Under the pieces are notes generated by a model that did no database searches, was not told the origin of the DNA, and worked only from the letters and a program-made list of their open reading frames with translations. The position numbers were made by a program, and so were the translations under genes. From Burkholderiales bacterium (GTDB lineage Bacteria; Pseudomonadota; Gammaproteobacteria; Burkholderiales; SG8-39): a stretch of 64,000 nt of DNA. The stretch's first letter is position 1; each line of letters begins with the position of its first letter. The stretch covers positions 676-64,675 of the forward strand of contig DASRKB010000237.1 in the NCBI GenBank assembly GCA_035649175.1. The letters run 5' to 3'. Shown here piece by piece: positions 14,911 through 41,556 of the stretch.

Positions 14911-15966
14911 ATGGCGAGATACGCGAACATCTGCGAAACCGTCGGCAACACGCCGGTCGTGAAGATCGGCAAGCTGGCGCCGGCCGGTGTGGACCTCCAC
15001 GTAAAGATCGAGGCGTTCAACCCGCTCGGCTCGGTGAAGGACCGCCTGGCGCTCGGGGTGATCGAGGACGCGGAGCGCACCGGCAAGCTCAAGCCCGGGC
15101 AGACGGTGATCGAGGCGACAAGCGGCAACACCGGTATCGGCCTCGCCATGGTCTGCGCGCAGAAGGGCTACCCGCTCGTCGTCACCATGGCCGAGAGCTT
15201 CAGCGTCGAGCGGCGCAAGCTCATGCGCTTCCTCGGCGCCAAGGTGGTGATCACCCCCGCCGCAGAGCGAGCGACCGGCATGGTGAAGAAGGCCATCGAG
15301 CTTGCCCAGGCCAACGGCTGGTTCCTCACCCGGCAGTTCGAGAACGAGGCGAACGCCGACTACCACTCGCGCACCACCGCCCAGGAGATCGTGCGGGACT
15401 TTCAGGGACAGCGCCTCGACTACTGGGTGACGGGCTTCGGCACCGGCGGCACGCTGAAGGGCGTGGCGCGCGTGCTCGCCAAGGAGCGGCCGGAGACGAA
15501 GATCGTCGTCTGCGAGCCCGCCGACGCCCCGATGCTCACCAACGGCGCCGTGCAGGAGCGCAACCCCGACGGCACGCCGGCGAAGGGAAACGCCTCCTGG
15601 AAGCCGCACCCGATGCAGGGCTGGAGCCCCGACTTCGTGCCCAAGCTCACCGGAGACGCGGTCGACATGAAGGTGATCCACAAGGTGCTCACGGTCACCG
15701 GACCCGACGCCATGCGCTGCTCGAAGGATCTCGCGCAGAAGGAGGGCATCTTCGTCGGCATCACCGGCGGCGGCACCTTTGCCGCGGCGCTCCAGGTATG
15801 CAAGGAAGCGCCGAAGGGCTCGTCGATCCTCTGCATGCTGCCCGACACCGGCGAGCGCTATCTTTCCACGCCGCTTTTTGCCGATGTTCCGGCCGACATG
15901 ACCGAGGAAGAGCTCGCCATCATGCGCTCGACCCCGAGCTGCCACCTGCCGCCGAAGGCCAGCTAG
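14911..15966 (+). CDS. cysK: cysteine synthase A / O-acetylserine sulfhydrylase family (PLP-dependent), 351 aa
   Basis: Track ORF 14911..15966. NTPVVKI...EAFNPLGSVKDRLALGVI (PLP lysine motif), EATSGNTGIGLA, LPDTGERYLSTPLF. It has a C-terminal tail of about 35 aa. Its stop overlaps the convergent kinase stop. Confidence 0.88.
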   Translation: MARYANICETVGNTPVVKIGKLAPAGVDLHVKIEAFNPLGSVKDRLALGVIEDAERTGKLKPGQTVIEATSGNTGIGLAMVCAQKGYPLVVTMAESFSVERRKLMRFLGAKVVITPAAERATGMVKKAIELAQANGWFLTRQFENEANADYHSRTTAQEIVRDFQGQRLDYWVTGFGTGGTLKGVARVLAKERPETKIVVCEPADAPMLTNGAVQERNPDGTPAKGNASWKPHPMQGWSPDFVPKLTGDAVDMKVIHKVLTVTGPDAMRCSKDLAQKEGIFVGITGGGTFAAALQVCKEAPKGSSILCMLPDTGERYLSTPLFADVPADMTEEELAIMRSTPSCHLPPKAS

Positions 15967-18900
15967 CGAAGCGGCAGCTTCACCGTAAAGGTCGAGCCCT
16001 TGCCGGGCTCGCTCTCGAGCGCAATCTCGCCGCCGTGCAGCTCGACCAGGCGCTTGGTCAGGGCAAGCCCGAGCCCGGTGCCCTCGGCCTTGCGGGTGTA
16101 GTCGGCGCCGACCTGCTTGAACTCCTCGAACACCGCCGGCTGGTCCTCCGCCGCGATGCCGACACCGGTGTCCTTCACCGCGATCTCCACCTTGTCGGTA
16201 TCGAGCTTCGCGACCACGTCCACCCTTCCGCCATCGGGCGTGAACTTCACGGCGTTGGAGAGCAGGTTGAGCAGGATCTGCTTCACCTTGCGCTCGTCGG
16301 CCTCGAAGCCGCCGAGCCGCGGATCGATCTGCATCCCGAGCTGAATGCCGTGGCGCTGTGCGCGCTCGCGCACCAGCGTCATGGCGTTCGAGATAGCGCT
16401 TGGCAGGTGGAAGCTGGAAAGCTCGAGCTCCATGCGCCCCGCCTCGATCTTCGAGAGGTCGAGGATGTCGTTGATGAGCGAGAGCAGGTGCCGGCCCGAC
16501 TCGTGGATATCCTTCAGGTACTCGACCTGCTTCTCGTTCACTTCGCCGAACATCCTCTCGAGGAGCACCTCGGAGAAGCCGATGATGGCGTTGAGCGGCG
16601 TCCTCAGCTCGTGCGACATGTTGGCGAGGAAGTCCGACTTGTGCTTGTTCGCCACCTCGAGCTGCGCGCTCTTCTCCTGGATCTCGCGGAAGAGCCGCGC
16701 GTTCTGGATCGCGATCACCGCCTGATCGGCGAAAGTGCGCAGCTGCGCGACCTGCTTGTCCGTGAAAGGGCCCGACTGCGCGCGCGCCACCCAGATCGCG
16801 CCGATCCCCCTGCCCTCGAAGAGCATGGGCGCGAAGACGATGGCGCGAACGCCAAGGGTGCGGGATCCCGCCACCACCCCTGGCGGCACGCCCGGCGCCT
16901 CGATATCCGGGAAGTGCGCAATCGCGGCGTTGAGGATGGCCCAGCCCGTGCCGCTGTCGCGGGTCAACGGCAACGGATAGATTCTCTTCAGCCGCTCGCC
17001 TTCCGGACCGTGGTAGGCGACCAGCCGCACCGTGTCGCCGTCGGCCACTGTCACCCCGACCAGGTCGCCCTCGAAAAGTCGCTCGCAGCTCGTGAGAATC
17101 TTGTCGAAGACCGGCTTGGTGTCGGCGATCGAGCCGGAGATCGCGCCGAGCACTTCCGCAGAAGCCTTCTGCTGCTCGAGCGCCTCCTTCGTCTCGTTGA
17201 ACAGGCGCACGTTCTCGATGGCGATTACCGCCTGGTCGGCGAACGTGCGCATCAGCGCGAGCTGGGTCTCGGTGAAGGGACGCGCCTCGGCGCGCCGGAT
17301 CATGATCGAGCCGATCGCCGTCCCCTCACGTATGAGCGGCGTGGCGAGCAGCGTGCGGTAGCCGAACTCCCGCGCGATCTCGCTGCCGCGCGGGTACTCG
17401 CTCGCCTCGGCCTGCAGGTCCTCGACGTGGATCTGCCTCCCTTCAAGGATGGCTCTCCCGGTGACGAGCTCCCGGGAGAGCGGGCGCGTGCCACCGACGC
17501 CGACGTTGGGCAGGCTGCCATGGTGCGCGACGAAACGAACCGAGTCGCCCTCACGCAGCTGGATGATCGCGTCCGTCGCCTCGCACAACCGCGCCGCCGT
17601 AGCCGCGACCGCGTCCAGCACCGGCTGGATATTCGTCGGCGAGCCGCTGATCACCTTGAGGATGTCCGCGGTGGCCGTCTGCCGCTCGAGCGCCTCCTTC
17701 GTCTCGTTGAAGAGCCGCACGTTCTCGATGGCGATCACCGCCTGGTCTGCGAAAGTGGTGACCAAGCGAATCTGCGCGTCGGCGAAGGGCCTGACCTCGC
17801 GGCGGTAGATCACCACGGCGCCGATCACCCGGCCGTCCTTCAGCAGCGGCACGGCGAAGAAGGTCCGCGCCTTCAGCTTGTCGACCGTCAACACGCGCAG
17901 CCGGTCCCCCTTGGCCGTGTCGCTGTCGGCAAGCAAATCGGGGATGTGCACCGGGCGGCGCAACCGCACGAGCTTGGCGAAGCCCGTGTGCGGCCCCGCT
18001 TCCACCCGCCGGAACGCCTCGTACGCGCTCGGGTCGTCGCCCTTGTAGCTCACCATGGTCCAGCTTGCGTCCGGCTCCTGCAGGAAGAGCCCACCGAGGT
18101 GCGCGTCGCAGAGCCGGATCGCCTTGTCGAGGATCGTTTCGAATACCGGCTGGACGTCGGTCGGCGACTCGGAGATCACCCGCAGGATGTCCGCCGTCGC
18201 GGTCTGCCGCTCGAGCGCCTCATTCGTCTCGTTGAAAAGGCGCACGTTCTCGATGGCAATGGCCGCCTGGTCGGCGAACGTCTGGAGGAGCTCCACCTGG
18301 CCGGCAGGCGCATTCCCGGGTTCACGCCACGCGACCACCAGGGCGCCCAACGGCTTGCCACCCCGCAGCATCGGCGCGCCGAGCATGCGGCGCCAGTGTC
18401 CGGTGGCCACGGAATCCGGGTCGTAGTGCTCGTCTGCCGCGGAATCCGGGATCTGCACGACGGCCTTGGTGAGAATCGTGCGGCCGCTGAGCAGGTGAGG
18501 GTCGGGCGGAGACGGGTAGACCTTCGAGAAGTAATCGAGCGCCGCCTGCGGCCAATTGTGCGTGGCGGTCATGTGAACGAGCTTGCCGTCGAAGGAAAAC
18601 ACCGCAGCGAGCTCCGCGTCGCATAGCGTCACCGCGCTCCTCAGGATCGCGTTGAACACCGGCTTCACGTCGGCCGGCGAGCCGGCGATCACCTTCAGGA
18701 CCTCGCTCGTGGCCGTCTGGCGCTCAAGCGCCTCCTTCGTCTCGTTGAAGAGGCGCACGTTCTCGATGGCGATCACCGCCTGTGCGGCGAAGGTCCTGAG
18801 CAGGTCCTCATGCCGCTGCAGGATCGCCCCGGGCTGCGCCCATCCCACGGTGATGACGCCGATCGCCCGGCCCTCGCGCATCAGCGGCACGCCCAGGATG

Positions 18901-21900
18901 CGTCGATAGCGCAGCGCTGCCCCGAGCTCCTTGTCGTATCCCGTATCCGCGTGCGTATCCTCGATCCGTACGTCCGCGCCATCCAGGATGACTCGCCCCA
19001 CCACGCGCGAGCGGTCCGGCGCCGCCGGATACGACTGCTTCAGACGCTCGAGGAGCGCGTCGGGCCATCCATGGGACGCCGCCCAGTGGATGCGCTCCCC
19101 GTCGAAGCGGAACACGTTGGCGTAGACCGCGTCGCAAAGCCGGGTCGCGTTGCGTACGATCGCCTCGAACACCGGTCCCGTATCGGTCGGCGTGCTCGAA
19201 ATCACGTGCAGGATCTCGGCGGTGGCGGTCTGCTTCTCTAACGCCTCCTTCGTCTCGTTGAACAGGCGCGCGTTCTCGATCGCGATCACCGCCTGGTCGG
19301 CGAAGCTCCGGATGAGGTCCACTTCCCGTTCATGGAATGGCTTCGCCTCGGCATGCGCAACGCTGACCGCGCCGACGACCTTGCCCTGGAAGAGCATCGG
19401 CGTGAAGATGACTGAGTTGAAATCGAAGTCGCGGGCGAACTGCGCGGTAGCGCTCGGGGCCTCTGGATTGTCGCGCACCGGCGTGATCTGGACGGTGCGC
19501 TTGGACAGCATGGCGCGCCCTCCGATTGTCGTATCGTCGAGAGGCCGCGGATAGCGGGAGCGCAAGCCATCGATTTCCGGCCCGCCGTCCGCCGCCGGCA
19601 TCTCCACGATGTCGCCGCGCAGTATCTGCACGACCGCGTACCGGGCGCCGAACAGCCGACGCAGAATGCGCACGATGCTTTCGAAGACCGGCTGCGCATC
19701 GGTCATCGATCCGCTGATCGTAGAGAGGACCTCCGCAGTCGCCTTCTGCCACTCGAGCGCCTCCTTTGTCTCGTTGAAGAGCCGCACGTTCTCGATCGCG
19801 ATGACCGCCTGGTCCGCGAAGGTCTGGAGCAGGTCCTCATGCTCGCGGGGCACCGGGCCAGCCTCTCCCCAGGTGACGACGATGACACCGATCGGCGATC
19901 CGCCACGCATCAGCGGGACGGCGACGATGCGGCGCCATCCACCGGCCTTCGCGTGGCGCTGGTCGTATTCGGGATCGGCCAACGCGTCCTCCAGCCGCAC
20001 CACCGTCCCGGCGAGGATCGCCCTGCCCGCCATCTGCGACCGGTTGGGTGCCATGGGATAGCTCTCGCTCAACAGATCGCGATACCGAGCGCTGTCCAGG
20101 CTCGTGGCGACAAAGTGCAGCTTCTCGCCGTCGTAGCGAAAGACGTTGGCGAGTAGGCCGTTGCACAGCCGCGCGGCGTGGCGAACCATGGCGTCGAAGA
20201 CGGGTTGCACGTTCGTCTGCGACCGGGCGATCGTCTGCAGGATCTCGCTCGTCGCCGTCTGCCGTTCGAGTGTCTCCTTCGTCTCGTTGAACAGCCGAAC
20301 GTTCTCGATCGCAATGACGGCCTGGTCCGCGAAGGTCTCGAGAAGCTCGATCTGGTGGTTGCTGAACGTCCCGGGCTCGCGGCGCGTGACGGCGATGACG
20401 CCGGTGGCAACGCCCTCGCGCAACATCGGTACGGCGAGCAGGCTGCGCGAGCCGCGTTCGCGCGCGCCTTTGCGGTACTCGTCGGAGTACGCGGGATCGG
20501 TTTCCGCGTCGACGATCCAGGCCGGTTTGCCGGTGAGCACCGCCTTGCCGAACGCGCCTTGGCCCGTAATCTGCGTCGGGAAAAGCTTCCGGAGCGATTC
20601 GGCGCCGGCCTCGCGGAATGCGGTGTGCGCGACAAGATGCAGCATGTCTCCGACACGCCGAGCGACCGCCGCCGAGTTCGCGGCAAACAACTTCTGCGCG
20701 CTTCGCGCGATCGCGTCGAACACCGGCTGTGTATCGGCGGGCGAGCCCGCGATGACTTTCAGGATCTCGGCGGTGGCCGTCTGCCGCTCGAGAGCCTCCT
20801 TGGTCTCGTTGAAGAGACGCACGTTCTCGATGGCGATGACCGCCTGATTGGCGAAAGTGCGAAGCAGCTCGATCTGCTTCGGCGTGTATTGCCTGTTCTC
20901 GGCACCTTCGATGACGTTGATCGTCCCGATGCCTCTGCCATCACGAATCAACGGCGCGCACAGAACATTGCGGAAGCCGAAGCCAGCGGCGAGCGCTTTG
21001 GTGCGATCGGCGAGATCCATGTCCGCCCGCACATCGGGCACGTAGACAACCTCGCCGCTGAGAATCGCGCGCCCTGACACGCTGTGCGCGTTGAGCGGCA
21101 AGGGAAAGAGCTTCTCGTATTGGTCACGACTGCGCAGGCCTTGCTTCGTCGCGAACGCGGCAAGTTCGATGTTGCCCTCCCGCACCAGCGTCACCACCAC
21201 GCTCATCCCGCCGAAAAGATGCACGCAGCTCTGCGCTATCGAGTCGAACACCGGCTGAACGTCGCGCGGCGAGCCCGCGATGACGCCTAGGATGTCGCTC
21301 GTGGCCGTCTGCCGCTCCAGCGCCTCCCTCGTCTCGTTGAACAGCCGGGCGTTCTCGATGGCGATCACCGCCTGCGCGGCAAAAGCCTCGAACAAGGCGA
21401 GCTCCGTGGCGCCGAAGGGCTTGCCCTCCGGGCGCGTCGTGCCGATGGTGCCGATCGCCTTGCCGTCGAGCATGAGCGGCGCGTGCAGCATGGCGTTGTA
21501 GGCAAAGCTCTTCGCGAGCGCCACCGCCTGCGGGGTGGCCTTCGGGTTGCCGATGATCGGTGCGAGCTGCGAGACCCTGCCCGAGCGCAGCGCCTTGCCT
21601 GTGAATCCTTTCCAGTCGACACGCTGCGGGAAGGAGTCGCGGAACGCCCGGAACACATCGGCGTGCCGCTTCTCGAACTGCACGTCGCCCTTGGCGGCGC
21701 CCAGATGCAGCTCGTCGCCCTTGAGCAGGAACACCGCAGCGTAGCGTGTGCTGAAGAGGCGCAGCACGTTTCTCACGATCGCCTCGAAAACGGGCCGGGC
21801 CTCGCCAGTGGAGCGGCTGAGCGACGCGAGGATCTCGGCGGTGGCCGCCTGGTACCGCAGCGCCTGGTCGCGCTCGGCGAGCGCGCGCCGCAGGGGCGAG

Positions 21901-21956
21901 GCGGCTGGCCGCTTATTCCGGGGAGGGGTCTTGCCGGGTTTACGCCGCGCGGCCAT
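15963..21956 (-). CDS. soluble sensor histidine kinase: ten tandem GAF modules + HisKA + HATPase_c, 1997 aa
   Basis: Track ORF 15963..21956. There is no TM segment. Ten units each end in [11 protein letters not shown](V/A)[16 protein letters not shown](A/S)EILKVI..., and the last ends [14 protein letters not shown]. Then come the H-box [21 protein letters not shown], N-box [13 protein letters not shown], G1 VKDTGVGI and G2 [18 protein letters not shown]. Confidence 0.93.
   Translation of the reverse strand: [1997 protein letters not shown]
16573..16691 (-). repeat. 119-nt segment identical to 25891..26009 (H-box/DHp helix-1 coding region of paralogous kinases)
   Basis: By eye, gagaagccgatgatggcgttgagcggcgtcctcagctcgtgcgacatgttggcgaggaagtccgacttgtgcttgttcgccacctcgagctgcgcgctcttctcctggatctcgcggaa occurs unchanged at both loci. 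Flanking sequence is similar but diverged. Confidence 0.8.
16689..21884 (-). repeat. intragenic tandem array of ten GAF + signalling-helix units, period 510-528 bp
   Basis: The Phe codon of the conserved RLF(N/R)E junction recurs at about 16689, 17199, 17709, 18234, 18747, 19260, 19776, 20289, 20811 and 21339. All spacings are multiples of 3. About 75 nt around each junction (gagcgcctccttcgtctcgttgaa..cgcacgttctcgatggcgatcaccgcctggtc) is strongly conserved at DNA level. The outer boundaries are approximate. Confidence 0.85.
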
Positions 21957-23012: not shown

Positions 23013-23383
23013 GCCTTGGCCGCCTCGACGAGGCGCTTCACCGTGTCCAGGAACTCCTTCAGGTTGATCGGCTTGCTGACGAAGGCGTCGAAGCCCGCGG
23101 CGGTGATCTGGCTGCGGTCGGTCGGCGTCACCGAGGCGGTGAGCGCGACGACTGGAATCCTCGCCGTGTTCGGGTCGGCGCGGATCTGCCTGAAGGCCTC
23201 GATGCCGTTGATGCCGGGAAGCTGGATGTCCATCAGCACCAGGTCCGGCGCCTTTTCCTTCGCGAGCTTCACGCCCTCCTCGCCCGTCACGGCCTCGAGC
23301 GTTCCGTAGCCCTTCGCCTGGAGCACATCCCGCGCGAGCTTCATGTTCTTCTCGTTGTCTTCGACGATCAGCACTGTGCTCAT
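23009..23383 (-). CDS. single-domain response regulator (CheY/DivK-like receiver), 124 aa
   Basis: Track ORF 23009..23383. VLIVEDNEKNMKLARDVL...PDLVLMDIQLPGINGIE...VVALTASV...GFDAFVSKPI. ATGA overlap with the upstream kinase stop. Confidence 0.92.
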   Translation of the reverse strand: MSTVLIVEDNEKNMKLARDVLQAKGYGTLEAVTGEEGVKLAKEKAPDLVLMDIQLPGINGIEAFRQIRADPNTARIPVVALTASVTPTDRSQITAAGFDAFVSKPINLKEFLDTVKRLVEAAKA

Positions 23384-31041: not shown

Positions 31042-31053
31042 CAGAGAGAAGAT

Positions 31054-34453: not shown

Positions 34454-34500
34454 TTTTATCAGTATATCCGGCACTAGCCCTTTGGTAGCATCCAGGAACC

Positions 34501-35925
34501 ATGCTGATCCGAGACAAGCTCTTCATCGACGGCCAATGGGTCGGCCCTTCAAGCAGCGAAACGATCGATGTGCACGACGCCGGCAACGGCAAGGTCATGG
34601 GACGCATCCCCGCCGGCGCCGAGAAGGACGCCGAGGCTGCGGTCCGGGCCGCCCGGTCGGCGCTCGAGACATGGAAGGACATTCCCGTCGAAAAGCGGGC
34701 CGAATACCTCGACAAGATCTCCTCCGGCCTGAAGGCGCGCGCCGACGAGATCGCGCGCACCATCGCGCGGGAAGTCGGCATGCCGCTCAAGATGGCCTCG
34801 CGCATCCAGGCCGGGCTTCCGATTGCGAACTTCGCGAACTACGCGAAGCTCGTGAAGGAGTTCAAGTTCGAGGAGAAGGTTGGAAATTCCCTCGTAGTGC
34901 GCGAGCCGGTGGGCGTGGTGCTCGCCATCACGCCCTGGAACTACCCCCTGCACCAGATCGCCCTGAAGGTGGCGCCGGCGCTCGCGGCCGGCTGCAGCGT
35001 GGTGCTCAAGCCCTCGGAGGTCGCGCCGTTCAACGCCTTCATCCTCGCCGAGGTGATCGAGGCGGCCGGGCTGCCCAGGGGCGTCTTCAACCTCGTCACG
35101 GGCACCGGTCCCGCCGTGGGCGAGGCGCTAGTAAAGCATCCCGACGTCGACATGATCTCCTTCACCGGCTCGACGCGCGCGGGCAAGCGGATCTCCGAGC
35201 TCGCCGCGCAGGGCGTCAAGCGGGTAGCGCTCGAGCTGGGTGGCAAGAGCGCCTCGTTGATCCTGGACGACGCGGACCTCGCGCAGGCGGTGAAGGGCAC
35301 GGTGAATGGTTGCTACCTGAACTCCGGCCAGACGTGCACCGCGCTCACCAGGATGCTGGTGCCCGAGAGCCTCTATCCGGAGGCGGCAAGGCTCGCGGGC
35401 GAGGCTGCGAAGAGTTTTGCCGTGGGTGATCCATTGAATGAGAACTCCAGGCTGGGCCCGCTCAGCTCCCAGGCGCAGCTCGAGCGCGTACGCGGATACA
35501 TCAAGAAGGGAATCGCCGAGGGCGCCGAGCTCGTCGCGGGCGGCGCCGAGCCGCCCGAAGGCGTGCCTGCCGGCGGCTACTACGTGCGCCCGACGGTGTT
35601 CGGCAAGGTGAAGAACAGCATGACCATCGCGCAGGAGGAGATTTTCGGGCCGGTGCTCTCCATCATCCCCTACAAGGACGAGGAAGATGCGGTGCGCATC
35701 GCGAACGACACGGTGTACGGGCTTGCCGGCGCAGTGTGGTCCAAGGACGACGCGCGCGCGCAGCGCGTGGCGCGCCGCATGCGCGCGGGGCAAGTCGACG
35801 TGAACGGCGGCGCGTTCAACATGAACGCCCCCTTCGGCGGCTTCAAGCAATCCGGCCACGGCCGCGAGGCCGGCGTGTACGGGCTCGAAGAATTCCTGGA
35901 ATATAAAGCCCTGCAACTAAAGTGA
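34501..35925 (+). CDS. NAD(P)-dependent aldehyde dehydrogenase, 474 aa
   Basis: Track ORF 34501..35925. [18 protein letters not shown], catalytic Cys region [19 protein letters not shown]. An AGGAA RBS is present. Confidence 0.93.
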
Positions 35926-37577
35926 GATTGCTGCGCCTCGCCACCGGACTGGTGGTCGCGGCGTTCGTCGTCGGGCACTTCCTCAACCACGCGCTCGGCG
36001 TGGTCTCGATCGAGGCAATGAACGGCATGCGCTCCGCCCTGGCCGCGGGGTGGCGCAGCCTGCCGGGCACGATCCTGCTGTACGGCTCGCTCGCCACGCA
36101 TTTCGCGCTCGCGCTCGTATCGCTCTACCGGCGCAGCACGCTGCGCATGCCGGCCTGGGAGGCCGGGCAGCTGCTGCTCGGGCTCGCGATCCCGCCGATG
36201 CTCATCGGCCACGTCGTCGGTACGCGGCTCAGCTGGACGCTCTACGGCCACCACATCGACTACGAGCGCATCGTGGGGCTGCTCTGGTCGGACTCGACCG
36301 CTGCGGCGCGGCAATCGGCGCTCCTCCTGGTCGTGTGGATGCATCTTTCGTTCGGCGTGCACTACTGGCTGCGGGTAAAGGCCTGGTACCCCACGGTGCA
36401 GCCGGTGCTCTTCGCCGCGGCGCTTCTCATCCCCGCCATCGCGCTCGCCGGCTTCGCCGCGGCAGGTGCGAGCCTGTGGCCCGGCATCGAGGCGGTGGGC
36501 GGCATGCAGAAGTACAACCTCGACCTCGCCGGGATGACCGACGCGCAGCGCGCGCGCCTCGTTCACTGGCGCGAGGGGATGACGTGGGGCTTCTGGCTGC
36601 TCCTCGGGGCGACGCTGCTCGCGCGCTGGCTGCGCCAGCGCATCGGCGGGACCTACCAGGTGCGCCACGCCTCCGGCCGCGTCATTACCGCGCCCGTCGG
36701 CCGCACCATCCTCGAGGCGATCCGCGACGCCGGCATCCCCCACGCCTCGGTCTGCGGCGGCCGCGCGCGCTGCACCACCTGCCGCGTGCGCGTCGGCGAA
36801 GGGCTCGCCGCGCTGCCGCCGCCGCGGCCGGCGGAGGCGCGCGCACTCGGGCGCATCGAGGCGCCGCCGAACGTGCGCCTCGCCTGCCAGTGCCGGCCGC
36901 GCACCCACGTCGCCGTCACCCCCCTTCTGCCCGCCGGCGCGGACGCGGCGCTCGCGCGCAACCCCCGCAGCCCGCGGGGGCAGGAGCGGCGCATCGTCGC
37001 CATGTTCGTCGACCTGCGCGAGTCGACCGAGCTCGCCGAGGGACGCCTGCCCTACGACGTGGTCTTCCTCATGAACCAGTTCTTCGCCGAGATGTACCAG
37101 GCGCTGCGGGCGACCAATGGCTACTACGCGCAGTTCCGCGGCGACGGCCTGCTCGCGCTCTATGGCCTCGGAGCCGAGCCCGCGCAGGCCTGCCGGGACG
37201 CCATCGCCGGCGCGGCCGAGATGCAGCGACGGCTCGAGGCGCTCAACGCGAGCCTCGCCGCCGACCTCGCGCGCCCCCTGCGCATCGGCATCGGCGTCCA
37301 CGTCGGCCTCGCCATCGTCGGCACGATGGGCCCGCCGGACGCGCCGATCCACTCCGCGATCGGCGACAACATCAACATCGCGGCGCGCCTGGAAGGCATG
37401 ACGAAGGCGTACGGCTGCGTGCTGGTAATTTCCGAGGACACGCTGACGGAGGCGGGGGTGGAACCGCGCGGCGCGACTTTGCACCGCGTGCGCGTGCGCG
37501 GCAGGAACGAGCGGCTCAGCGTGTACGCCGTCCAGGATCCGCGCATGCTCACGTCGGTCCGGCAAATCGGGGTCTGA
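35922..37577 (+). CDS. membrane protein - [2Fe-2S] ferredoxin domain - class III nucleotidyl cyclase fusion, 551 aa
   Basis: Track ORF 35922..37577, with a GTG start and a GTGA overlap with the ALDH stop. The N-terminal 240 aa or so has 5-6 TM segments with several His (H19, H23, H60, H97, H110/111, H141, H147). The Fer2 domain reads [13 protein letters not shown]...LACQC. The CHD reads [13 protein letters not shown]...[14 protein letters not shown]...[16 protein letters not shown]. Confidence 0.88.
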
Positions 37578-37584: not shown

Positions 37585-37587
37585 CTC

Positions 37588-38037
37588 CTACTTTCCCGAC
37601 AGGGTGCGCGAGAGCTGGTTGGTCGTATTGGCGAGGCGAGCGGCGAGCACGCGGATCAGCTCGAGCGCGGCGTCGGGGTTCTCGCGAATCACCTGGGAGA
37701 AAAGATCCTTGGAGATTCTCAGGGTCTCGAGCGCGGTGAGCGCCTTGGCGGTGGCGGTGCGCGGCACCTCGCCGAAGATGGCGATCTCGCCGATGATGTC
37801 GTTGCGGCCGAGCTTGTTGACCACCAGTGGGCCGCCGGGGGTGGGCACGCTGATCTCCACTTCGCCGTCGATCACGATGTAAGCGGCATCGCCCATGTCC
37901 CCGGCGTTGAACATCACCTGCCCGGGGGCGTAGGAGAGCCGCTCGGCGGAGAACACCAGCAGCTTCTGCATCGCCGGCTGGATCTTGCTGAAGATCGGGA
38001 ACTGGCGGATCAGCTCGACTTCCTGCTCCAGGCTCAT
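37588..38037 (-). CDS. stand-alone cyclic nucleotide-binding domain protein, 149 aa
   Basis: C-terminal part of track ORF 37588..38151, from the ATG at 38037 (MSLEQEVELIRQFPIFSKI...). The CNB core is GDAAYIVIDGEVEI...IIGEIAIFGEVPRTATAKAL (Arg93-Thr94 phosphate-binding cassette). ATGA overlap with the ABC gene stop. Confidence 0.88.
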   Translation of the reverse strand: MSLEQEVELIRQFPIFSKIQPAMQKLLVFSAERLSYAPGQVMFNAGDMGDAAYIVIDGEVEISVPTPGGPLVVNKLGRNDIIGEIAIFGEVPRTATAKALTALETLRISKDLFSQVIRENPDAALELIRVLAARLANTTNQLSRTLSGK

Positions 38038-40688
38038 GCGGCAGTCCTCCTCTTCAGCTCCGTGAACTTGCCCTGCTCCGCGAGGCGCCCACGTTCCATC
38101 ACCAGCACCATGTCGAAGCGCTCGGCGTACTCCTCGCGCGAGAGCGCCCATACCACCCCGGCGCCCCTGCGCTCGGCGAGCACGTTGTCGACCACGCGGC
38201 CCTGCGAGGCCGGGTCGAGCAGCGCGCCCGCGTGGTCCAGGACGAGGAGCACCGGGCGCTTGAGCAATGCGCGCACCAGCGCGACCTTCTGCCGGTCGGA
38301 CGGCGCCAGCCGCGCCCCGCCGACGCCTACGTGATAGCCCAGTCCGTTCCTCACCACCAGCGGCCGCAGGCCAAGCTCGTCCAGCAGCTCCCGCATCAGC
38401 GTCGTGATCCGCTGCACGGCGCCCGCCTGGCCGGTCACGATCTTGCCGAACAGGATGTTGTCCTGCAGGGTCGCGGCCCTGTTGTAGCGCGTCGGGTCGA
38501 AAAACTCCACCGCGTCGCGCATCCCGGCAGGCAGGTGACGCGCGAAGTGGTGGCGGGCCTCGACCACGCGAGCCTCGAAGCTCTCGTCGATGAGCCCGAG
38601 GCGGTGGCGCGCGGCGATGAGGCGGAAGGGCAGCGCGAGCAGCAGGCGCCGTTCGGCCTCCTCGATGCCACGCAGGCCGGCCTCGGTGACGCGCTTCAGG
38701 ATAGCCTCGAACTGCGGCAGGTCCTCTTGCCGGATGAAGCTGTACTGCGCGAAGAACTCGTGGCCGGGTGGCAGGCCGCTGAAGAGCTCGACCATGGTCT
38801 CGGCCACCTTGTGCCCGGTGCGCAGCACGAGGTCGTGCAACCCCGTGTCGTGCAGCACCTGGCGCACGTAGGCGTTGCCGGCGAGGTTCTCGATGTCGAA
38901 GGTGCGTCCGACCGGGGTGCCGAACAGCAGGTTCTCGGCGAGCGTCGCGTTGCGGTTGTAGTGCGCCGGGTCGAAGCGCTCGACCCAGTCCTCGATGCTC
39001 TGGGAAGCAAGGCGCTCGCGCATCTTCTGCCGCGCGGAAAGCACCTTCCCGGAGAATTGGTCGGAGTCTGCGGTGCTGCGCAAGCCGAGCTCGAACACAG
39101 TCTCCTCGAGCTCCACCACGCGCAGCAGCTCGACGATACGCGCCTCCATCTCATCCGTGCTGCCCACCCCGGCCGCGGCGTAGTCGATCCACTCGGCGTT
39201 GATGTCGAGCGGCGAGTTGCCGGTGCGCAGCGCCTCGCGCGCCTCTGCCTCGCGCGCCCTGCGCCTCGCGGCGTCGTGCTCGGGCTCGCGGATCGGCCGG
39301 TGCTTCAGGCCGTAAAGGATGTTCGAGCGCACGTCGGCGGGAAAGAGGTATGCGGGCGTGCCGACGTAGCCGATGGCGCGTCCGGTCACCGCCTCGGGGG
39401 CGCGGGTGATGTCGATGCCGCCCATCTCGATGGCGCCGCTCGTCGGCGGGTAGAGTCGCGCCACGAGCTGCGCGAGCTCGGTGGCGCCCGCGCCACTCTG
39501 CCGCGAAACGATGGCGACGTGCGAGCCAAGATCCGCCTCGAAGGAGACGTTGTCCACCACCCGGCTGCCCGCCTCGTCGACGAAGGTGAGGCCCGTGGCC
39601 CGCATCCGCCCGGCCCGGGGTAGCGGCGGATCCTCGGCGGGCGCCTGCAGCTCCGCCGGGGCGACGTCCTCCGCGGTGAACTGCTCCACCACCTGGCCGT
39701 ACTTGATCTGCACGTCGAGGCGCTGCTGGTCCCAGTCGATCAGCTCCTTCACCGGCGTGGGCAGGTCCTTGTAGGCGGCGATCACCGCCACGAGCGCGCC
39801 GATGTCGAGCCGGCCGACGATCACCAGGTAGCCGCCCAGCGCATAGAACAGGAAGGGCGTGACCTGCGATAGGAAGTTGTTGAGGAACTTGATGAGGAAT
39901 TTGCGCTGGTAGAACTCGAAGCGGATGCGGAAGATGTGCCCCAGCCGCGCGGAGATCTCGGCGCGCTCGTAGTTGGAGGTGTCGTTGGCGTGGATCTCGG
40001 CGATGCCGTCGACCGACTCGGCGATGCGCCCGGCGAGCGCCCGCGCGGTGAGCTGGCGCTCGCGGCCGAGCACGAGCAGGCGCCGGCGCAGCCGCGGGAT
40101 CAGGTACGCCTGCACGCCCACCACCCCCAAGGCGGTCAGGCCGAGCGCGACGTGCTGGTACAGGATGAAGACCATCGCGGTGAGCGCCTGCCCGCCGAGG
40201 AAGAGCGGCGTGATGAGCGCCTCCCCGACGAACCCGCCGAGCGGCTCGACCTCGTCCTTGATCATGGTGGCCATTTCGGCGGCCTTCACGCGCCGGAAGC
40301 GCTGCAGCGGGAAGCGCAGGATGTAGTCGAACAGCGCATAGCGCAGCCGCCGCAGCATGCGCTCGCCCATCCAGCCCTTCATGGTGTTGATCTGGAACTT
40401 GAGCCAACCGTTCAGCACGATCAGGCCGAGGAACACCGCGCTCAGCGCGAAGAGATAGGGAATCCGCTCGAGCGCCAGCCCCAGGAAAGGGACCTTGGCG
40501 TCGGGGCTCGGGAACGCGTCGCCCTGGATCGCCTGGTTGATGATGGTCTTGGGTAGGTCGAGGGAAAGGTAATAGACGACCATGGTCGCGAGCACCAGCG
40601 GCACGATGAGCAGCTGGTCGCGCTTGCTGTAACGCAGGATGAAACCGAAAAGGCTTCGATCCACCTTGGATCCCCGGGGAACGCACAT
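38034..40688 (-). CDS. atypical ABC exporter-like protein: 6-TM ABC membrane domain + degenerate, internally duplicated nucleotide-binding domain, about 884 aa
   Basis: Track ORF 38034..40796, with the start placed at ATG 40688 (MCVPRGSKVDRSLFGFILRYSKRDQ...). A GTG 8 codons downstream is also possible. The TMD resembles type I ABC exporters. In the NBD, the Walker A position reads SRQSGAGAT (nt 39480-39506), the signature position reads LAPSD (38295-38309), and Walker B reads LLVLDH (38232-38249). An insert of about 270 aa (38502-39305) carries a second degenerate helical-subdomain copy. Confidence 0.8.
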   Translation of the reverse strand: MCVPRGSKVDRSLFGFILRYSKRDQLLIVPLVLATMVVYYLSLDLPKTIINQAIQGDAFPSPDAKVPFLGLALERIPYLFALSAVFLGLIVLNGWLKFQINTMKGWMGERMLRRLRYALFDYILRFPLQRFRRVKAAEMATMIKDEVEPLGGFVGEALITPLFLGGQALTAMVFILYQHVALGLTALGVVGVQAYLIPRLRRRLLVLGRERQLTARALAGRIAESVDGIAEIHANDTSNYERAEISARLGHIFRIRFEFYQRKFLIKFLNNFLSQVTPFLFYALGGYLVIVGRLDIGALVAVIAAYKDLPTPVKELIDWDQQRLDVQIKYGQVVEQFTAEDVAPAELQAPAEDPPLPRAGRMRATGLTFVDEAGSRVVDNVSFEADLGSHVAIVSRQSGAGATELAQLVARLYPPTSGAIEMGGIDITRAPEAVTGRAIGYVGTPAYLFPADVRSNILYGLKHRPIREPEHDAARRRAREAEAREALRTGNSPLDINAEWIDYAAAGVGSTDEMEARIVELLRVVELEETVFELGLRSTADSDQFSGKVLSARQKMRERLASQSIEDWVERFDPAHYNRNATLAENLLFGTPVGRTFDIENLAGNAYVRQVLHDTGLHDLVLRTGHKVAETMVELFSGLPPGHEFFAQYSFIRQEDLPQFEAILKRVTEAGLRGIEEAERRLLLALPFRLIAARHRLGLIDESFEARVVEARHHFARHLPAGMRDAVEFFDPTRYNRAATLQDNILFGKIVTGQAGAVQRITTLMRELLDELGLRPLVVRNGLGYHVGVGGARLAPSDRQKVALVRALLKRPVLLVLDHAGALLDPASQGRVVDNVLAERRGAGVVWALSREEYAERFDMVLVMERGRLAEQGKFTELKRRTAA

Positions 40689-40728
40689 CTTACAGTCCCT
40701 GACGGGATTTGCCGCTATAGTTGGACGC

Positions 40729-41556
40729 ATGGACCCCGCTTTCAGCGTGCGCTTCTGGGGCGTGCGAGGCTCGATCGCTTGCTCCGGCCCGCGCACCGCC
40801 CGCTACGGCGGCAACACCTCGTCGCTCGAGGTGCGCTGCGGCGAGCGGCTGCTCCTCTTCGACGCCGGCACCGGCATCCGCTACCTGGGCAAGACCCTCG
40901 AGGGAAAGAGGCTCGACGCCGATCTCTTCTTCACCCACACGCACTTCGACCATATCTGCGGCCTGCCTTTCTTCCGGCCGTTCTTCGAGTCGGGCAACCG
41001 TTTCCGGCTCTGGGCCGGGCACCTCGACGGCCGGCAGGTCACGCTGAAGCGCGTGCTGGCCGAGTTCATGATGTCGCCACTGTTTCCGGTGCCGCCGGAG
41101 ATCTTCCACGCGCGGATGGAGTACCGCGACTTCAAGAGCGGGGACACGCTCCACCCCGCCGATGGCTTCGTCGTGAGAACCGCGCCGCTCAACCACCCCG
41201 ACGGAGCCACCGGATACCGGGTCGAGTACGGGGGGAAGTCGCTCTGCTACGTCACCGACACCGAGCACGTGCCTGGCAATCCCGACCGCAACGTTCTCGG
41301 CCTCATCGCCGGCGCGGACCTCGTGGTCTACGACTGCATGTACACCGACGAGGAGTACCCGCGCTTCGCCACCTGGGGCCACTCCACCTGGCAGGAAGGG
41401 GTGCGTTTGTGCCGCGAGGCCGGCGCGAAGCGCCTCGTGGTCTTTCACCACGAGCCAGACCACGACGACGACATGCTCGACGGCGTCGCGCGAGAAGTGG
41501 ACAGGGCGCTTCCGGGGTCGCTCGTGGCCAAGGAAGGCCTGGTTCTCGAGCCGTAG
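40729..41556 (+). CDS. metallo-beta-lactamase-fold hydrolase (HxHxDH), 275 aa
   Basis: C-terminal part of track ORF 40639..41556, from the ATG at 40729 (MDPAFSVRFWGVRGSIA...LLLFDAGTG...FFTHTHFDHICGLPFF...VFHHEPDHDD). It is divergent from the ABC gene, with 40 bp between the two starts. Confidence 0.85.
   Translation: MDPAFSVRFWGVRGSIACSGPRTARYGGNTSSLEVRCGERLLLFDAGTGIRYLGKTLEGKRLDADLFFTHTHFDHICGLPFFRPFFESGNRFRLWAGHLDGRQVTLKRVLAEFMMSPLFPVPPEIFHARMEYRDFKSGDTLHPADGFVVRTAPLNHPDGATGYRVEYGGKSLCYVTDTEHVPGNPDRNVLGLIAGADLVVYDCMYTDEEYPRFATWGHSTWQEGVRLCREAGAKRLVVFHHEPDHDDDMLDGVAREVDRALPGSLVAKEGLVLEP

Follow-up and report, generated by a model that had tools for sequence, protein, structure and literature searches.

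A question raised by this locus is why three class III cyclases, a set of sensor kinases, two cyclic mononucleotide (cNMP) receptors and a candidate degrading enzyme should lie side by side in a soil Burkholderiales bacterium, and whether they work together. We examined a window of 64,000 nucleotides (the whole stretch of DNA analyzed), in which 25.6 kb holds the three cyclases, both receptors and the enzyme, which is of a phosphodiesterase clade. An earlier note had named these parts from the letters of the window, and all of its domain calls were upheld under Pfam, with the parts at, or a few codons from, the positions first assigned to them. The cluster is real and conserved, and its components are known kinds of parts. 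We consider it fairly probable that it is a chromosomal, multi-operon cyclic-mononucleotide signaling locus whose modules also exist alone and which is conserved in one uncultured soil Burkholderiales lineage; the observations behind this explanation are the domains, the catalytic and phospho-acceptor residues, the synteny and a gene fusion. The earlier interpretation as a whole is partly supported.

A multi-kinase sensor operon

The sensor operon runs through seven minus-strand genes that overlap by 4 nt or are spaced 10-27 nt apart. Two of them encode periplasmic solute-binding proteins (SBPs) of the Pfam family ABC_sub_bind (PF04392), the first at 29190..30143 (E 9.5e-29), with an N-terminal signal-like sequence, and the second at 28222..29193 (E 1.9e-35), its gene overlapping the one upstream by 4 nt. 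The operon contains no cognate permease or ATPase for the first of these proteins, and PF04392 paralogs lie upstream of the kinase in eight other loci (L010, L013, L016, L032, L088, L090, L115 and L127). Ahead of the first SBP gene is a small minus-strand ORF (29998..30285, start ATG 30285), which we tentatively regard as probably the first gene of the operon. An alignment of 10 crp-upstream regions revealed a conserved ATG, an RBS-like GGAGG and a codon-like pattern of conservation; the conservation is confined to the N-terminal ~28 aa, which include one hydrophobic helix (MSVLEHLQFVALMVPTAVMVVLALVSLD), and the ORF is called as a gene of 51-77 aa in L088, L089 and L090.

The three sensor kinases, all encoded on the minus strand, differ in their inputs. 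HK1 (25275..28211; Pfam dCache_1, HAMP, two GAF, HisKA and HATPase_c) is a membrane protein in which a periplasmic dCache_1 domain is set between two transmembrane segments (hydrophobic segments 23-51 and 285-320) and is followed by HAMP, the two GAF domains, HisKA and HATPase_c. HK2 (23380..25278; three PAS_3, HisKA and HATPase_c) and HK3 (15963..21956; ten GAF, HisKA and HATPase_c) are cytoplasmic. The kinase core, whose closest matches are 7z8n and DivL, is 85% identical between HK3 and HK1, and that of HK2 is 65-67% identical to both. As the earlier note had read, all three kinases share one H-box and lack a receiver domain in Pfam; the helix after the H-box is likewise identical, and their phosphotransfer helices are near-identical. 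HK2 is found in L001 and L002, both of which have an identical cyclase, and is missing at that position in L088-L090; it is an insertion limited to the lineage of the window at this position. A multi-GAF kinase of 1133-2523 aa lies downstream of the cyclase in L088, L089 and L090.

Between the HK2 and HK3 genes lie two receivers, also on the minus strand. The single-domain receiver (23009..23383; Pfam Response_reg only) has Caulobacter DivK (1m5t) as its best solved relative by far (E 5.7e-33). Receiver-cyclase 1 (21984..23012; Response_reg and Guanylate_cyc) combines a receiver closest to PleD REC1 (E 5e-34) with a CyaB-type class III cyclase domain (E 7.5e-34 against CyaB of P. aeruginosa, 3r5g), and among 16 homologs both its receiver residues D11, D12, D55, T85 and K107 and its cyclase residues D169, D213, N290 and R294 are invariant. 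The cassette of kinase, optional extra receivers, DivK-like receiver and receiver-cyclase is present in 18 of the 19 loci inspected, which span Burkholderiales, Chloroflexi, Actinomycetota, Rokubacteria, one gammaproteobacterium and one cyanobacterium; in the same number of loci, across several phyla, an HK1-type kinase core (48-78% identical) is upstream of the receiver pair. By a stricter count, the DivK-like receiver is directly 5' of the receiver-cyclase in 21/30 loci. The output is where this operon would differ from a divK-pleD-type operon, a cyclic mononucleotide being expected here and c-di-GMP there.

The proposed link from a kinase to the receiver-cyclase is backed by this conserved cassette. 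The conserved partners are only the Cache/GAF-type kinase upstream and the multi-GAF kinase downstream; the 3xPAS kinase is lineage-specific. The term phosphorelay has to be given up. Since the cluster contains neither an Hpt protein nor a hybrid kinase, it encodes a multi-kinase two-component network, and this network branches to two receivers.

Two cyclases coupled to dehydrogenases

Receiver-cyclase 2 (32265..33350, minus strand; Response_reg and Guanylate_cyc) is a paralog of receiver-cyclase 1 (59% identity by tblastn) with a longer coiled linker. Its helix alpha-1 is unlike that of receiver-cyclase 1 and of the DivK-like protein, and it may therefore respond to a different kinase. Downstream of it is an MFS transporter gene (31054..32264, minus strand; MFS_1; start uncertain) that has no counterpart at that position in any related locus and is an insertion limited to the lineage of the window. 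On its other side, receiver-cyclase 2 overlaps by 4 nt with a gene for a zinc alcohol dehydrogenase (ADH; 33347..34453, minus strand; ADH_N and ADH_zinc_N), whose start is more likely ATG 34453, giving 368 aa as in relatives; the overlap suggests that the two are co-transcribed.

Across a spacer of 47 nt, an aldehyde dehydrogenase gene (ALDH; 34501..35925, plus strand; Aldedh, E 4e-167) is followed by the third cyclase, Fer2-cyclase (35922..37577, plus strand), and from their coordinates these genes also overlap by 4 nt and are likewise predicted to be co-transcribed. Fer2-cyclase has a hydrophobic N-terminal membrane anchor of ~240 aa with several helices, then a plant-type 2Fe-2S ferredoxin domain (Fer2) with the motif C-x4-C-x2-C...C, and then a class III cyclase domain (Guanylate_cyc).

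All three cyclases have the catalytic positions equivalent to D169, D213, N290 and R294 (the metal Asp residues, the Asn and the Arg). At the specificity positions, receiver-cyclase 1 has R209 and A283, receiver-cyclase 2 has H and A, and Fer2-cyclase has Q and S; none of the three has a canonical adenylate or guanylate pair, and the product therefore cannot be named cAMP or cGMP.

Receptors and a candidate hydrolase

The CRP/FNR-family regulator (30406..31041, plus strand; cNMP_binding and HTH_Crp_2) retains its phosphate-binding cassette intact (GE...RSA), its recognition helix is CRP-like (RE...R), and it scores 124.5 bits against the NCBIfam CRP model, under the cut-off of 266. Orthologs of 211 aa occupy the same position in L088-L090 and in eight further loci. 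Exact GTGA-N5-TCAC matches number 13 in 872 kb of related loci, all of them beside crp. In the window, the alignment of crp-upstream regions places at 30363..30380 (plus strand) the sequence CAGTAGCCGATTCACACC, a degenerate TGTGA-N5-TCACC; relatives have the motif upstream of crp, and the copy in the window departs from it at two positions of the left half-site. The promoters of the window, including the SBP/crp and adh/aldh regions, where the earlier note had placed its candidate targets, yielded neither a CRP-consensus nor a GTGA-N5-TCAC site.

The second receptor is a stand-alone cNMP-binding protein (CNB; 37588..38037, minus strand; cNMP_binding), which has the expected RT cassette (GE...RTA). 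Its gene starts right at the stop codon of one for an ABC-exporter-like membrane protein (38034..40688, minus strand; ABC_membrane and ABC_tran, with PDB alignments), for which the start ATG 40688 (884 aa) is more likely than 40796. The CNB gene lies downstream of the ABC-like gene in 63/64 loci with room, and relatives in which the two genes are fused support the suggestion that the proteins form a pair, the CNB domain being joined to the ABC-like C-terminus in all 8 long homologs tested. The ATPase domain of the ABC-like protein is split by an insert of ~290 aa, which defines a family of 634 clusters (E <= 1e-10). The Walker A Lys, the LSGGQ signature and the Walker B Glu are missing from this domain, and degeneracy of these motifs extends to every related locus and to 63-70 of the 70 full-length representatives.

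A spacer of 40 nt separates the ABC-like gene from the divergent gene for an MBL-fold metallo-hydrolase (40729..41556, plus strand; Lactamase_B_2) with an HxHxDH motif in which H70, H72, D74 and H75 are invariant. An AF2 model (pLDDT 78) gave 1zkp, YhfI (6kns), RNase Z and the PhnP family as top Foldseek matches, which are phosphodiesterases of nucleotides and nucleic acids, and structural modeling thus assigns the protein to the RNase Z/ElaC/YhfI/PhnP phosphodiesterase clade. The proposed eraser of the system is thereby narrowed to a predicted phosphodiesterase-clade protein, which missed the cut-offs of curated cNMP phosphodiesterase families.

Conservation of gene order

Synteny had been named beforehand as the decisive test, and the gene order recurs in related contigs, all of which are metagenome-derived and come from soil Burkholderiales. 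The recurrent order is MBL / ABC-like > CNB / Fer2-cyclase < ALDH / ADH > REC-cyclase-2 / Crp / SBP > Cache kinase > CheY > REC-cyclase-1 > multi-GAF kinase. L089 and L090 keep the order from Fer2-cyclase to the multi-GAF kinase whole, and L088 keeps it except for ALDH and Fer2-cyclase. Among loci whose ABC-like protein is at least 70% identical, we found CNB in 38/38, MBL in 36/36, Fer2-cyclase in 9/10, ALDH in 9/9 with room, ADH in 8/8 and receiver-cyclase 2 in 5/5. Among loci that are more distant, ABC-CNB (25/26) and MBL (20/31) are all that persists, with a cyclase nearby in only 3/10. Recurrence in many independent contigs makes the juxtaposition more than chance. The cluster is an assembly of older modules: the kinase, DivK-like receiver and PleD-like receiver-class III cyclase, found in Burkholderiales and as far off as Chloroflexi, Actinomycetota and a cyanobacterium; the ABC-exporter-like protein, with its split, degenerate ATPase domain, and the cNMP-binding protein; and the cyclases whose translation is coupled to that of alcohol and aldehyde dehydrogenases. 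It is not an island in the compositional sense, as GC is uniform and the block has no tRNA genes; its chromosomal setting is stable, and no mobile-element genes were found in its context.

The surroundings of the block bear on how far this conservation can be pressed. A PAS-GGDEF gene (42947..44791, plus strand; PAS_9 and GGDEF) is a frequent neighbor (6/8 close loci with room), and the second GGDEF gene that had been taken to flank the cluster (2425-3573, minus strand, by Pfam) is outside the conserved block. The GGDEF product, c-di-GMP, is a messenger different from that of the cyclases. Left of the block are genes for fatty-acid oxidation. An Opp-type permease gene (44824-47097), which has no obvious signaling link, is kept beside the block even at 60-65% ABC identity, as well conserved as the signaling genes, so that simple chromosomal collinearity may account for part of the synteny.

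The last observation favors an alternative that is unlikely and yet the most credible of those considered, namely that the modules are functionally independent and are neighbors in one lineage through shared descent, with no shared circuit. The confinement of the full block to the group at or above 70% ABC identity, the occurrence of the cassette alone in other phyla and of ABC-CNB without the other genes elsewhere, and the lack of ALDH and Fer2-cyclase at this site in L088 all fit independence, and class III cyclases can number in the dozens in a soil bacterium, S. meliloti having 28 (PMC5498481). Against it is the density with which parts of one pathway are grouped. Moreover, the order outlasts both insertions (an MFS gene, a PAS kinase, and 1-3 kb between CNB and Fer2-cyclase in several loci) and divergence of the kinases to about 55-60% identity, Crp is always between two cyclase operons, and in the distant loci L153, L163, L167 and L169 a different cyclase adjoins ABC-CNB.

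Improbable alternatives: catabolic regulation or phage defense

A quite improbable alternative is that the locus mainly regulates alcohol and aldehyde catabolism as a CRP-like catabolite circuit, in which the two-component cassette is one input of several, the dehydrogenase-coupled cyclases report flux or redox through the 2Fe-2S sensor, and Crp tunes carbon-source genes. Every locus that extends far enough conserves the order ADH > receiver-cyclase 2 and both 4-nt overlaps, the Fer2 domain retains its cluster cysteines, and the fatty-acid oxidation genes on the left would suit such a role. However, the adh/aldh spacer has no Crp-type site, and L088 has ADH > receiver-cyclase 2 without the ALDH/Fer2-cyclase pair. 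In addition, ADH and ALDH miss all NCBIfam equivalog cut-offs (the nearest models for ADH being NDMA-dependent ADH, mycothiol-dependent FDH and class III ADH).

It is extremely improbable that the right-hand part (cyclase, CNB, membrane protein and MBL) defends against phage in the manner of Pycsar, with a cyclic pyrimidine nucleotide made by the cyclase activating a membrane effector. In favor of this reading, the specificity residues are non-canonical, the MBL fold is common to the anti-Pycsar enzyme Apyc1 (Foldseek rank 43), and PADLOC effector models match the CNB domain and its PycC models all three cyclases (47-71 bits). The PycC scores, however, are no better than those of the generic Pfam cyclase model (43-68 bits) and thus indicate nothing beyond the common domain. 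Sensory receiver or membrane/2Fe-2S domains are part of the cyclases, PADLOC gives no match for the MBL protein, neither a TIR effector nor a Pycsar-type TM effector is present, and the context is the stable, compositionally uniform chromosome described above.

A model for the signaling locus

Returning to a multi-operon signaling locus as the preferred reading, we infer phosphotransfer partners, phosphorylation-driven activation, product identity, receptor ligand and hydrolase substrate as follows. HK1, the Cache/HAMP/GAF kinase, probably receives its ligands from the orphan periplasmic binding proteins, and HK3 and, in this lineage, HK2 would add intracellular inputs through their GAF and PAS domains. 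The near-identical phosphotransfer helices suggest that the kinases phosphorylate the same two receivers. It is possible that the DivK-like receiver acts as a phosphate sink or feedback modulator, and phosphorylation of the PleD-like receiver is expected to favor a dimer that forms two cyclase active sites. The CRP-family regulator would read the messenger as a second module, and the GTGA-N5-TCAC motif at its own promoter in relatives points to probable autoregulation. CNB would work with the ABC-exporter-like protein, whose ATPase domain is predicted from its motifs to be non-hydrolytic, and the adjacent MBL-fold predicted phosphodiesterase may remove the messenger. Lastly, the two further cyclases are each translationally coupled to a dehydrogenase, receiver-cyclase 2 to ADH and Fer2-cyclase to ALDH, and such coupling would tie messenger synthesis in these soil bacteria to the expression of alcohol and aldehyde oxidation, and possibly to redox state.

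Gene organization of the signaling cluster

Domain assignments that an earlier note had proposed for the cluster were all borne out by Pfam. A minus-strand operon running from 30143 down to 15963 encodes two PF04392 binding proteins (SBPs), followed by the sensor kinase HK1 (25275-28211), with the architecture dCache_1-HAMP-2xGAF-HisKA-HATPase_c, the 3xPAS_3 kinase HK2 (23380-25278), a DivK-like single receiver (23009-23383), the Response_reg-Guanylate_cyc fusion REC-cyclase 1 (21984-23012) and the 10xGAF kinase HK3 (15963-21956). Genes within the operon overlap by 4 nt or are separated by 10-27 nt. Divergent from the operon is crp (30406-31041, plus strand), which encodes cNMP_binding and HTH_Crp_2 domains. 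The remaining cluster genes include an MFS gene and the gene for REC-cyclase 2 (32265-33350, minus strand), a second Response_reg-Guanylate_cyc fusion, which overlaps an alcohol dehydrogenase (ADH) gene by 4 nt. A divergent aldehyde dehydrogenase (ALDH) gene overlaps by 4 nt the gene for the Fer2-cyclase (35922-37577, plus strand), in which a membrane anchor is joined to Fer2 and Guanylate_cyc domains. Convergent with it, a gene for an ABC_membrane/ABC_tran protein (ABC-like protein, 38034-40688, minus strand) is followed directly by one for a stand-alone 149-aa cNMP_binding protein (CNB, 37588-38037, minus strand), and divergent from the ABC-like gene is a Lactamase_B_2 gene (MBL, 40729-41556, plus strand).

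The ADH gene probably starts at ATG 34453, the likelier of its start codons, and the ABC-like gene probably at ATG 40688, so that the divergent spacers measure just 47 nt (ADH/ALDH, 34454-34500) and 40 nt (ABC-like/MBL, 40689-40728) and are too short for two separate standard promoters; in two related contigs, L089 and L090, they are 48-51 nt. A sigma-70 promoter scan found nothing, the two short divergent spacers included, and terminator-like sites were not commoner than in shuffled sequence. GC content was uniformly high across the window (0.645-0.714 in 2-kb bins), with flanks alike and no break at the cluster, and the idea of a compositional island was rejected. No tRNA genes were present in the window, and an Rfam search of it matched no family.

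No Pfam family matched the Fer2-cyclase membrane anchor, the insert in the ABC-like protein, or the ORFs at 41561-42031 (plus strand) and 42246-42797 (minus strand). These two ORFs sit between the MBL and PAS-GGDEF genes, and the second is kept at 54-62% identity in five of the closest relatives (L092-L094, L096). A small ORF (29998-30285, minus strand) of 95 codons in the window lies between crp and the first SBP gene, which it overlaps in another frame; relatives conserve its start codon and RBS-like element as well as the hydrophobic helix at its N-terminus, and counterparts are called as genes of 51-77 aa in L089, L090 and a third related contig, L088. Beyond the cluster come ordinary genes of metabolism and transport. 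The left flank (3533-15966) has an acyl-CoA synthetase-like gene along with genes for a branched-chain-type ABC importer, a FadB-like enzyme, a thiolase and a PLP-dependent enzyme; the right flank (44824-50727) has an Opp/Dpp-type ABC importer followed by glycosyltransferases. L088 shares the PLP-enzyme neighbor and, further left, thiolase and 3-hydroxyacyl-CoA dehydrogenase genes, and many loci share the Opp-type neighbor.

A kinase-receiver-cyclase cassette

The cluster had been described as a phosphorelay, which is the wrong word, given that in Pfam the three kinases have neither a receiver nor an Hpt domain and that there is no Hpt protein; a single HPTransfase match, below threshold, fell over the ATPase domain of HK2. 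The companion statements that no kinase is a hybrid and that the three share an H-box held up: HK1, HK2 and HK3 all lack a Response_reg domain, and a 23-residue H-box segment is identical among them. Their kinase cores are 85% identical between HK1 and HK3, and that of HK2 is 65-67% identical to each of the others.

The receiver of REC-cyclase 1 has D11, D12, D55, T85 and K107, all of which are invariant among 16 homologs, and equivalents of the acidic pocket, acceptor Asp, Thr/Ser and Lys are readable in REC-cyclase 2 and the single receiver. Among solved structures in the PDB, the single receiver is closest, by a wide margin, to Caulobacter DivK (E 5.7e-33). The receiver of REC-cyclase 1 matched PleD REC1 best (E 5e-34), and the best matches of the kinase core were 7z8n and DivL, the DivL-type group being the closest to it. 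By similarity, the paired receivers and DivJ/PleC-type kinases have the make-up of a DivK/PleD-type branched pathway.

A cassette of kinase, DivK-like receiver and REC-cyclase, in that order, was encoded on one strand in 18 of the 19 loci inspected, with kinase cores 48-78% identical to that of HK1, and the loci are assigned to Burkholderiales, Chloroflexi, Actinomycetota, Rokubacteria, a gammaproteobacterium and a cyanobacterium. A stricter count found the cassette in 21 of 30 loci. One or two extra receivers sometimes precede the DivK-like receiver. Conservation of this operon is the strongest non-experimental support for the prediction that the upstream kinase works in one pathway with the single receiver and the REC-cyclase. 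REC-cyclase homologs of 45-53% identity occur in the same cassette in nine loci (L015, L017, L018, L020, L022-L024, L026 and L027) from MAGs labeled Chloroflexi, Actinomycetota, Dehalococcoidia and Rokubacteria. Such homologs in other phyla point to horizontal spread of the cassette, with binning errors possible among these soil MAGs on short contigs.

Receiver helix alpha-1 has a role in partner choice. This helix is alike in REC-cyclase 1 (NLKLFADLLGAKGY) and the DivK-like receiver (NMKLARDVLQAKGY) and different in REC-cyclase 2 (SVEMMAGVLKARGY); thus, REC-cyclase 1 and the DivK-like receiver probably share kinases, and REC-cyclase 2 may not share them.

On the input side, the SBPs have signal peptides, and the operon lacks transporter partners for them. 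PF04392 paralogs are also encoded upstream of the kinase in other Burkholderiales loci, and it is plausible that the SBPs serve as co-sensors with the periplasmic Cache domain. In another Burkholderiales MAG (L032, 278-7065), six tblastn matches to SBPs lie in a row upstream of the cassette. HK1 and HK3 lack NKFDE, a motif of cNMP-binding GAF domains, which leaves a messenger-reading role of the GAF arrays without sequence support. Close relatives differ in the length of the multi-GAF kinase that follows REC-cyclase 1, which has 1133 aa in L088 (11058-14459), 1997 aa in the window (15963-21956), 2025 aa in L089 (11048-17125) and 2523 aa in L090 (11097-18668), indicating that the GAF array expands and contracts; no tandem repeats were detectable at the DNA level in the arrays of the window. 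In L089 and L090 a second single receiver and a PAS/GAF kinase come after the multi-GAF kinase.

Catalytic and specificity residues of the cyclases

The three cyclases scored 68.1, 62.3 and 43.2 bits against PF00211 (cut-off 21.9). The closest solved relative of the REC-cyclase 1 catalytic domain was Pseudomonas aeruginosa CyaB (3r5g, E 7.5e-34), and the catalytic domain of Spirulina CyaC was also among its relatives (1wc0/1wc1, E ~2e-20). D169, D213, N290 and R294 of REC-cyclase 1 align with the metal-binding Asp pair, Asn and Arg of CyaB, and these columns are invariant in all three cyclases and 16 homologs. With these residues present, all three cyclases could be active as homodimers.

The nucleotide used is a different matter. 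Specificity was assigned from a residue pair, Lys plus Asp/Thr for ATP and Glu plus Cys/Gly/Ser for GTP, and none of the three cyclases has a canonical adenylate or guanylate pair. Where CyaB has Lys, REC-cyclase 1, REC-cyclase 2 and the Fer2-cyclase have Arg (R209), His and Gln, respectively, and where CyaB has Thr they have Ala (A283), Ala and Ser. The product is therefore not nameable from sequence. Among REC-cyclase homologs, Arg/His with Ala/Gly is kept across phyla, and K/T or E/G occurs in a few distant ones only.

The Crp homolog and its linked motif

The Crp homolog has a cNMP_binding domain (PF00027, 83.9 bits) followed by a Crp-type HTH (PF13545, 51.6 bits), and it retains a GE...RSA cassette and a CRP-like recognition helix. 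Its score against the CRP equivalog NF008732 was 124.5 bits, below the cut-off of 266. The classical site TGTGA-N6-TCACA, with up to two mismatches, had four matches in the window, fewer than in shuffles and none of them in the cluster spacers. Alignment of crp-upstream regions from 10 loci revealed a conserved element, TGTGAC-AAAT-TCACC, located 25-47 nt before the crp start codon. Exact GTGA-N5-TCAC occurs 13 times in 872 kb of related loci, always beside crp (9 upstream and 4 just downstream), a distribution from which autoregulation appears likely. A second, near-identical copy, GTTGTGACTAATTCACCC, lies between crp and the REC-cyclase 2 gene in four relatives (L089 at 5626, L108 at 13776, L109 at 14669 and L129 at 11385). 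Small unannotated ORFs are called in this region in those relatives, and in the window the MFS gene occupies it.

The copy in the window (30363-30380) has a degenerate left half-site. No GTGA-N5-TCAC match with up to one mismatch was found in the window spacers, and with a weight matrix derived from the 13 related sites no position in the window reached 12 bits. Since the window has no further copy of the motif and its own copy is degenerate, the proposal that Crp reads the SBP or adh/aldh promoters is unsupported by motif evidence.

A degenerate ABC-like protein paired with a cNMP-binding protein

The ABC-like protein carries an ABC_membrane transmembrane domain (PF00664, 55.7 bits) and can be aligned with type IV exporters. 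An insert of ~290 aa splits its ATPase domain into a Walker A/Q-loop part (residues 405-526) and a signature/Walker B part (residues ~820-917), and within this insert the post-Q-loop motif recurs twice, as ATLAENLLFG and ATLQDNILFG. Neither the window protein, which has SGAGAT, LAPSDRQ and LLVLDH motifs, nor any of the related loci retains the Walker A Lys, the LSGGQ signature or the catalytic Glu. In a set of 70 full-length representatives, a canonical Walker A is missing from 63, LSGGQ from all 70 and the Walker B Asp-Glu from 65. With the insert as query, 930 clusters (50% identity) were found at E <= 0.001, 634 at E <= 1e-10 and 255 at E <= 1e-30. The window protein and homologs P0242-P0390 belong to a sizeable uncharacterized family with a split ATPase domain. 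It matched no curated family, and we found no paper on it.

CNB, which carries a GE...RTA cassette, is the constant partner downstream of the ABC-like gene. All eight homologs of 1035-1206 aa carry a cNMP_binding domain as a C-terminal fusion, which mirrors the order of the gene pair, and two of the eight add a GGDEF-like domain. The fusions are strong evidence of joint action by CNB and the ABC-like protein. Which nucleotide is bound cannot be predicted from the RS and RT residues in the cassettes of the Crp homolog and CNB.

The nearest described proteins are the type IV ABC exporters (MsbA, HlyB and PCAT) and the cNMP-domain-associated bacteriocin exporters TIGR03796/03797 with TIGR03896, which share with the window proteins the ABC_membrane fold, the order of membrane domain and then nucleotide-binding domain (NBD), and a cNMP-binding partner. 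Nevertheless, the window proteins score far under the cut-offs of the exporter families (135 vs 853 bits and 42.5 vs 161 bits), and in contrast to exporters the NBD is split by the ~290-aa insert and has lost the Walker A Lys, LSGGQ and catalytic Glu. Unlike the bacteriocin exporters, the ABC-like protein lacks a peptidase domain, and the neighboring genes scanned yielded neither a peptidase nor a bacteriocin-related family.

A candidate eraser

The MBL has an invariant HxHxDH motif, and the nearest relatives in sequence and profile searches were RNase Z/ElaC1 and, weakly, PhnP. Its homologs carry the JGI label 'phosphoribosyl 1,2-cyclic phosphodiesterase'. A structural model built from a 22-sequence alignment had a pLDDT of 78 and a pTM of 0.84; the single-sequence model (pLDDT 44.7) was useless. 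The best Foldseek matches were the Bacillus anthracis ElaC-like protein 1zkp, Bacillus subtilis YhfI (6kns), RNase Z, a PhnP-family diphosphatase and AMP-/GMP-bound Brucella proteins. Apyc1, a phage enzyme that degrades cyclic mononucleotides, was also among the structure matches, at rank 43. The MBL scored 30.1 bits against the cNMP phosphodiesterase family NF041851 (cut-off 400), and PF02112 (class II) gave a 10.8-bit match in one homolog only. The MBL is assigned to the phosphodiesterase clade. It shares the HxHxDH motif and fold with small RNase Z/ElaC-like proteins (YhfI 6kns, 1zkp, PhnP 3g1p and Apyc1 7u2r), with a target-normalized TM-score of 0.7-0.8 for YhfI against the window model, but its identity to this set is just 14-22%, and it reaches no curated family cut-off.

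Conservation of the block

A protein identical to REC-cyclase 1 was found on short contigs from several sequencing runs of one series. Homologs of >80% identity number in the thousands and are metagenomic, and the few named ones come from 'Burkholderiales bacterium' or 'Betaproteobacteria bacterium' MAGs. The host belongs to an uncultured Burkholderiales lineage, probably of soil origin.

Three long contigs (L088, L089 and L090), with 84-93% identity in REC-cyclase 1, retain the order Fer2-cyclase, ALDH, ADH and REC-cyclase 2, Crp, one or more SBPs, Cache/HAMP/GAF kinase, single receiver, REC-cyclase 1 and multi-GAF kinase, but ALDH and the Fer2-cyclase are missing at the site in L088. The MFS gene and the PAS kinase are missing at the corresponding positions in all three contigs, which identifies them as insertions in the lineage of the window. 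In L088, the closest long relative, the Cache/HAMP/GAF kinase (6299-9633) is called in pieces of 285, 71 and 317 aa, and it may be a pseudogene or reflect an assembly or frameshift error.

A second synteny search, anchored on the ABC-like protein, covered 80 metagenome loci, with counts restricted to those having enough flanking DNA. At ABC identities of at least 70%, CNB was present in 38/38 loci, MBL in 36/36, the Fer2-cyclase in 9/10, ALDH in 9/9, ADH in 8/8, REC-cyclase 2 in 5/5 and PAS-GGDEF in 6/8. Below 70%, CNB was present in 25/26 and MBL in 20/31, and none of the other block genes was found. The earlier note had held that the grouping would be fortuitous were it not syntenic in any related genome; the order recurs in related loci, and the juxtaposition is not fortuitous. 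Part of this synteny may be ordinary collinearity, as the Opp-type permease gene on the right flank (44824-47097), a neighbor of the block, is equally well conserved.

Relation to known systems

One reading of the cluster, that it is a Pycsar anti-phage system, was rejected: PycC matches were no stronger than generic domain matches, and there was no TIR or PycTM effector.

Receiver-cyclase fusions are a recognized type of response regulator. Cyanobacterial CyaC (Spirulina/Anabaena) and Dictyostelium ACR resemble the REC-cyclases in having a receiver ahead of a class III cyclase domain. CyaC, like CyaB, has Lys/Thr at the specificity positions, and the regulatory domain of CyaB is a membrane MASE2 domain, unlike the receivers here. 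In CyaC and ACR the kinase and receivers lie in one polypeptide, ACR combining histidine-kinase, receiver and cyclase domains (PMC3009899), whereas kinase, single receiver and REC-cyclase are separate genes in the cluster.

In Sinorhizobium meliloti, CyaD1, CyaD2 and CyaK feed the Crp-family regulator Clr, clr adjoins cyaD1, and the genome has 28 cyclases (PMC5498481). The likeness lies in several class III cyclases with a Crp-family regulator encoded beside one of them, and a phosphodiesterase has been described there as well (PMC5498481); according to the title of Mathieu-Demaziere 2013 (cited in PMC5498481), SpdA acts on 2',3'-cyclic nucleotides. However, the S. meliloti cyclases are receptor-type rather than receiver fusions, the Clr box is TGTT-N8-AACA rather than the GTGA-N5-TCAC found in relatives of the window, and the S. 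meliloti system has no ABC/CNB pair and no coupling of cyclases to dehydrogenases.

The Caulobacter DivJ/PleC-DivK-PleD network also has several kinases and two receivers, with a single receiver encoded directly upstream of a receiver-output fusion; the gene order in Caulobacter crescentus is divK-pleD. The output of that network is a GGDEF domain (c-di-GMP), whereas that of REC-cyclase 1 is Guanylate_cyc, with GGDEF absent. PleD has two receiver domains and REC-cyclase 1 has one, the window kinases carry Cache, GAF and PAS sensors, unlike those of the DivJ/PleC network, and the host is a betaproteobacterium without evidence of a cell-cycle role for the pathway.

All domains of the cluster are already known. 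New are the combination of modules, which is conserved, the three-gene cassette that crosses phyla and has a non-canonical specificity pair, the coupling of dehydrogenases with cyclases, and the degenerate split-NBD ABC/CNB family. We found no description of the cluster, the cassette or the ABC/CNB family in the literature, which is weak evidence of novelty with most subscription journals outside reach.

Proposed mechanism and significance

In the mechanism that we propose, periplasmic ligands would act through the Cache domain and the SBPs, and cytoplasmic cues through the GAF and PAS arrays, to govern how far the DivK-like receiver and REC-cyclase 1 are phosphorylated. Phosphorylation of the latter would promote cyclase dimerization and messenger synthesis, and the DivK-like protein would either compete for phosphate or modulate the kinases. 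REC-cyclase 2 and the Fer2-cyclase may supply inputs tied to expression of ADH and ALDH, perhaps including redox state sensed through the 2Fe-2S cluster. The messenger would then act on Crp to control transcription and on CNB and the ABC-like protein to control a membrane process, and MBL may degrade it.

The most far-reaching version holds that REC-cyclases with the Arg/His plus Ala/Gly pair make a non-cAMP messenger (cGMP, a mixture or a cyclic pyrimidine nucleotide), that the non-hydrolytic, split-NBD ABC-like protein with its bound or fused CNB is a new class of cNMP-gated membrane effector (a channel, a flippase-like protein or a signaling scaffold), that MBL is a dedicated eraser and that the whole is a self-contained circuit. 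We consider this version improbable as it stands. If true, it would be a type of second-messenger circuit for which bacteria offer no described precedent.

Little of bacterial cyclic-mononucleotide signaling has been mapped outside the CRP paradigm, and many class III cyclases of soil bacteria are orphans for which neither input nor output is known. The locus offers a compact, conserved test bed in which gene order nominates an input of binding proteins and kinases, a writer, a reader and a possible eraser. The cassette is spread over at least six phyla, and, its specificity pair being non-canonical, characterizing one member would annotate thousands of proteins. Likewise, the ABC-like family (634 clusters at 50% identity, E <= 1e-10) could reveal cyclic-nucleotide control of a bacterial membrane protein. 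Both modules reach well beyond the host organism.
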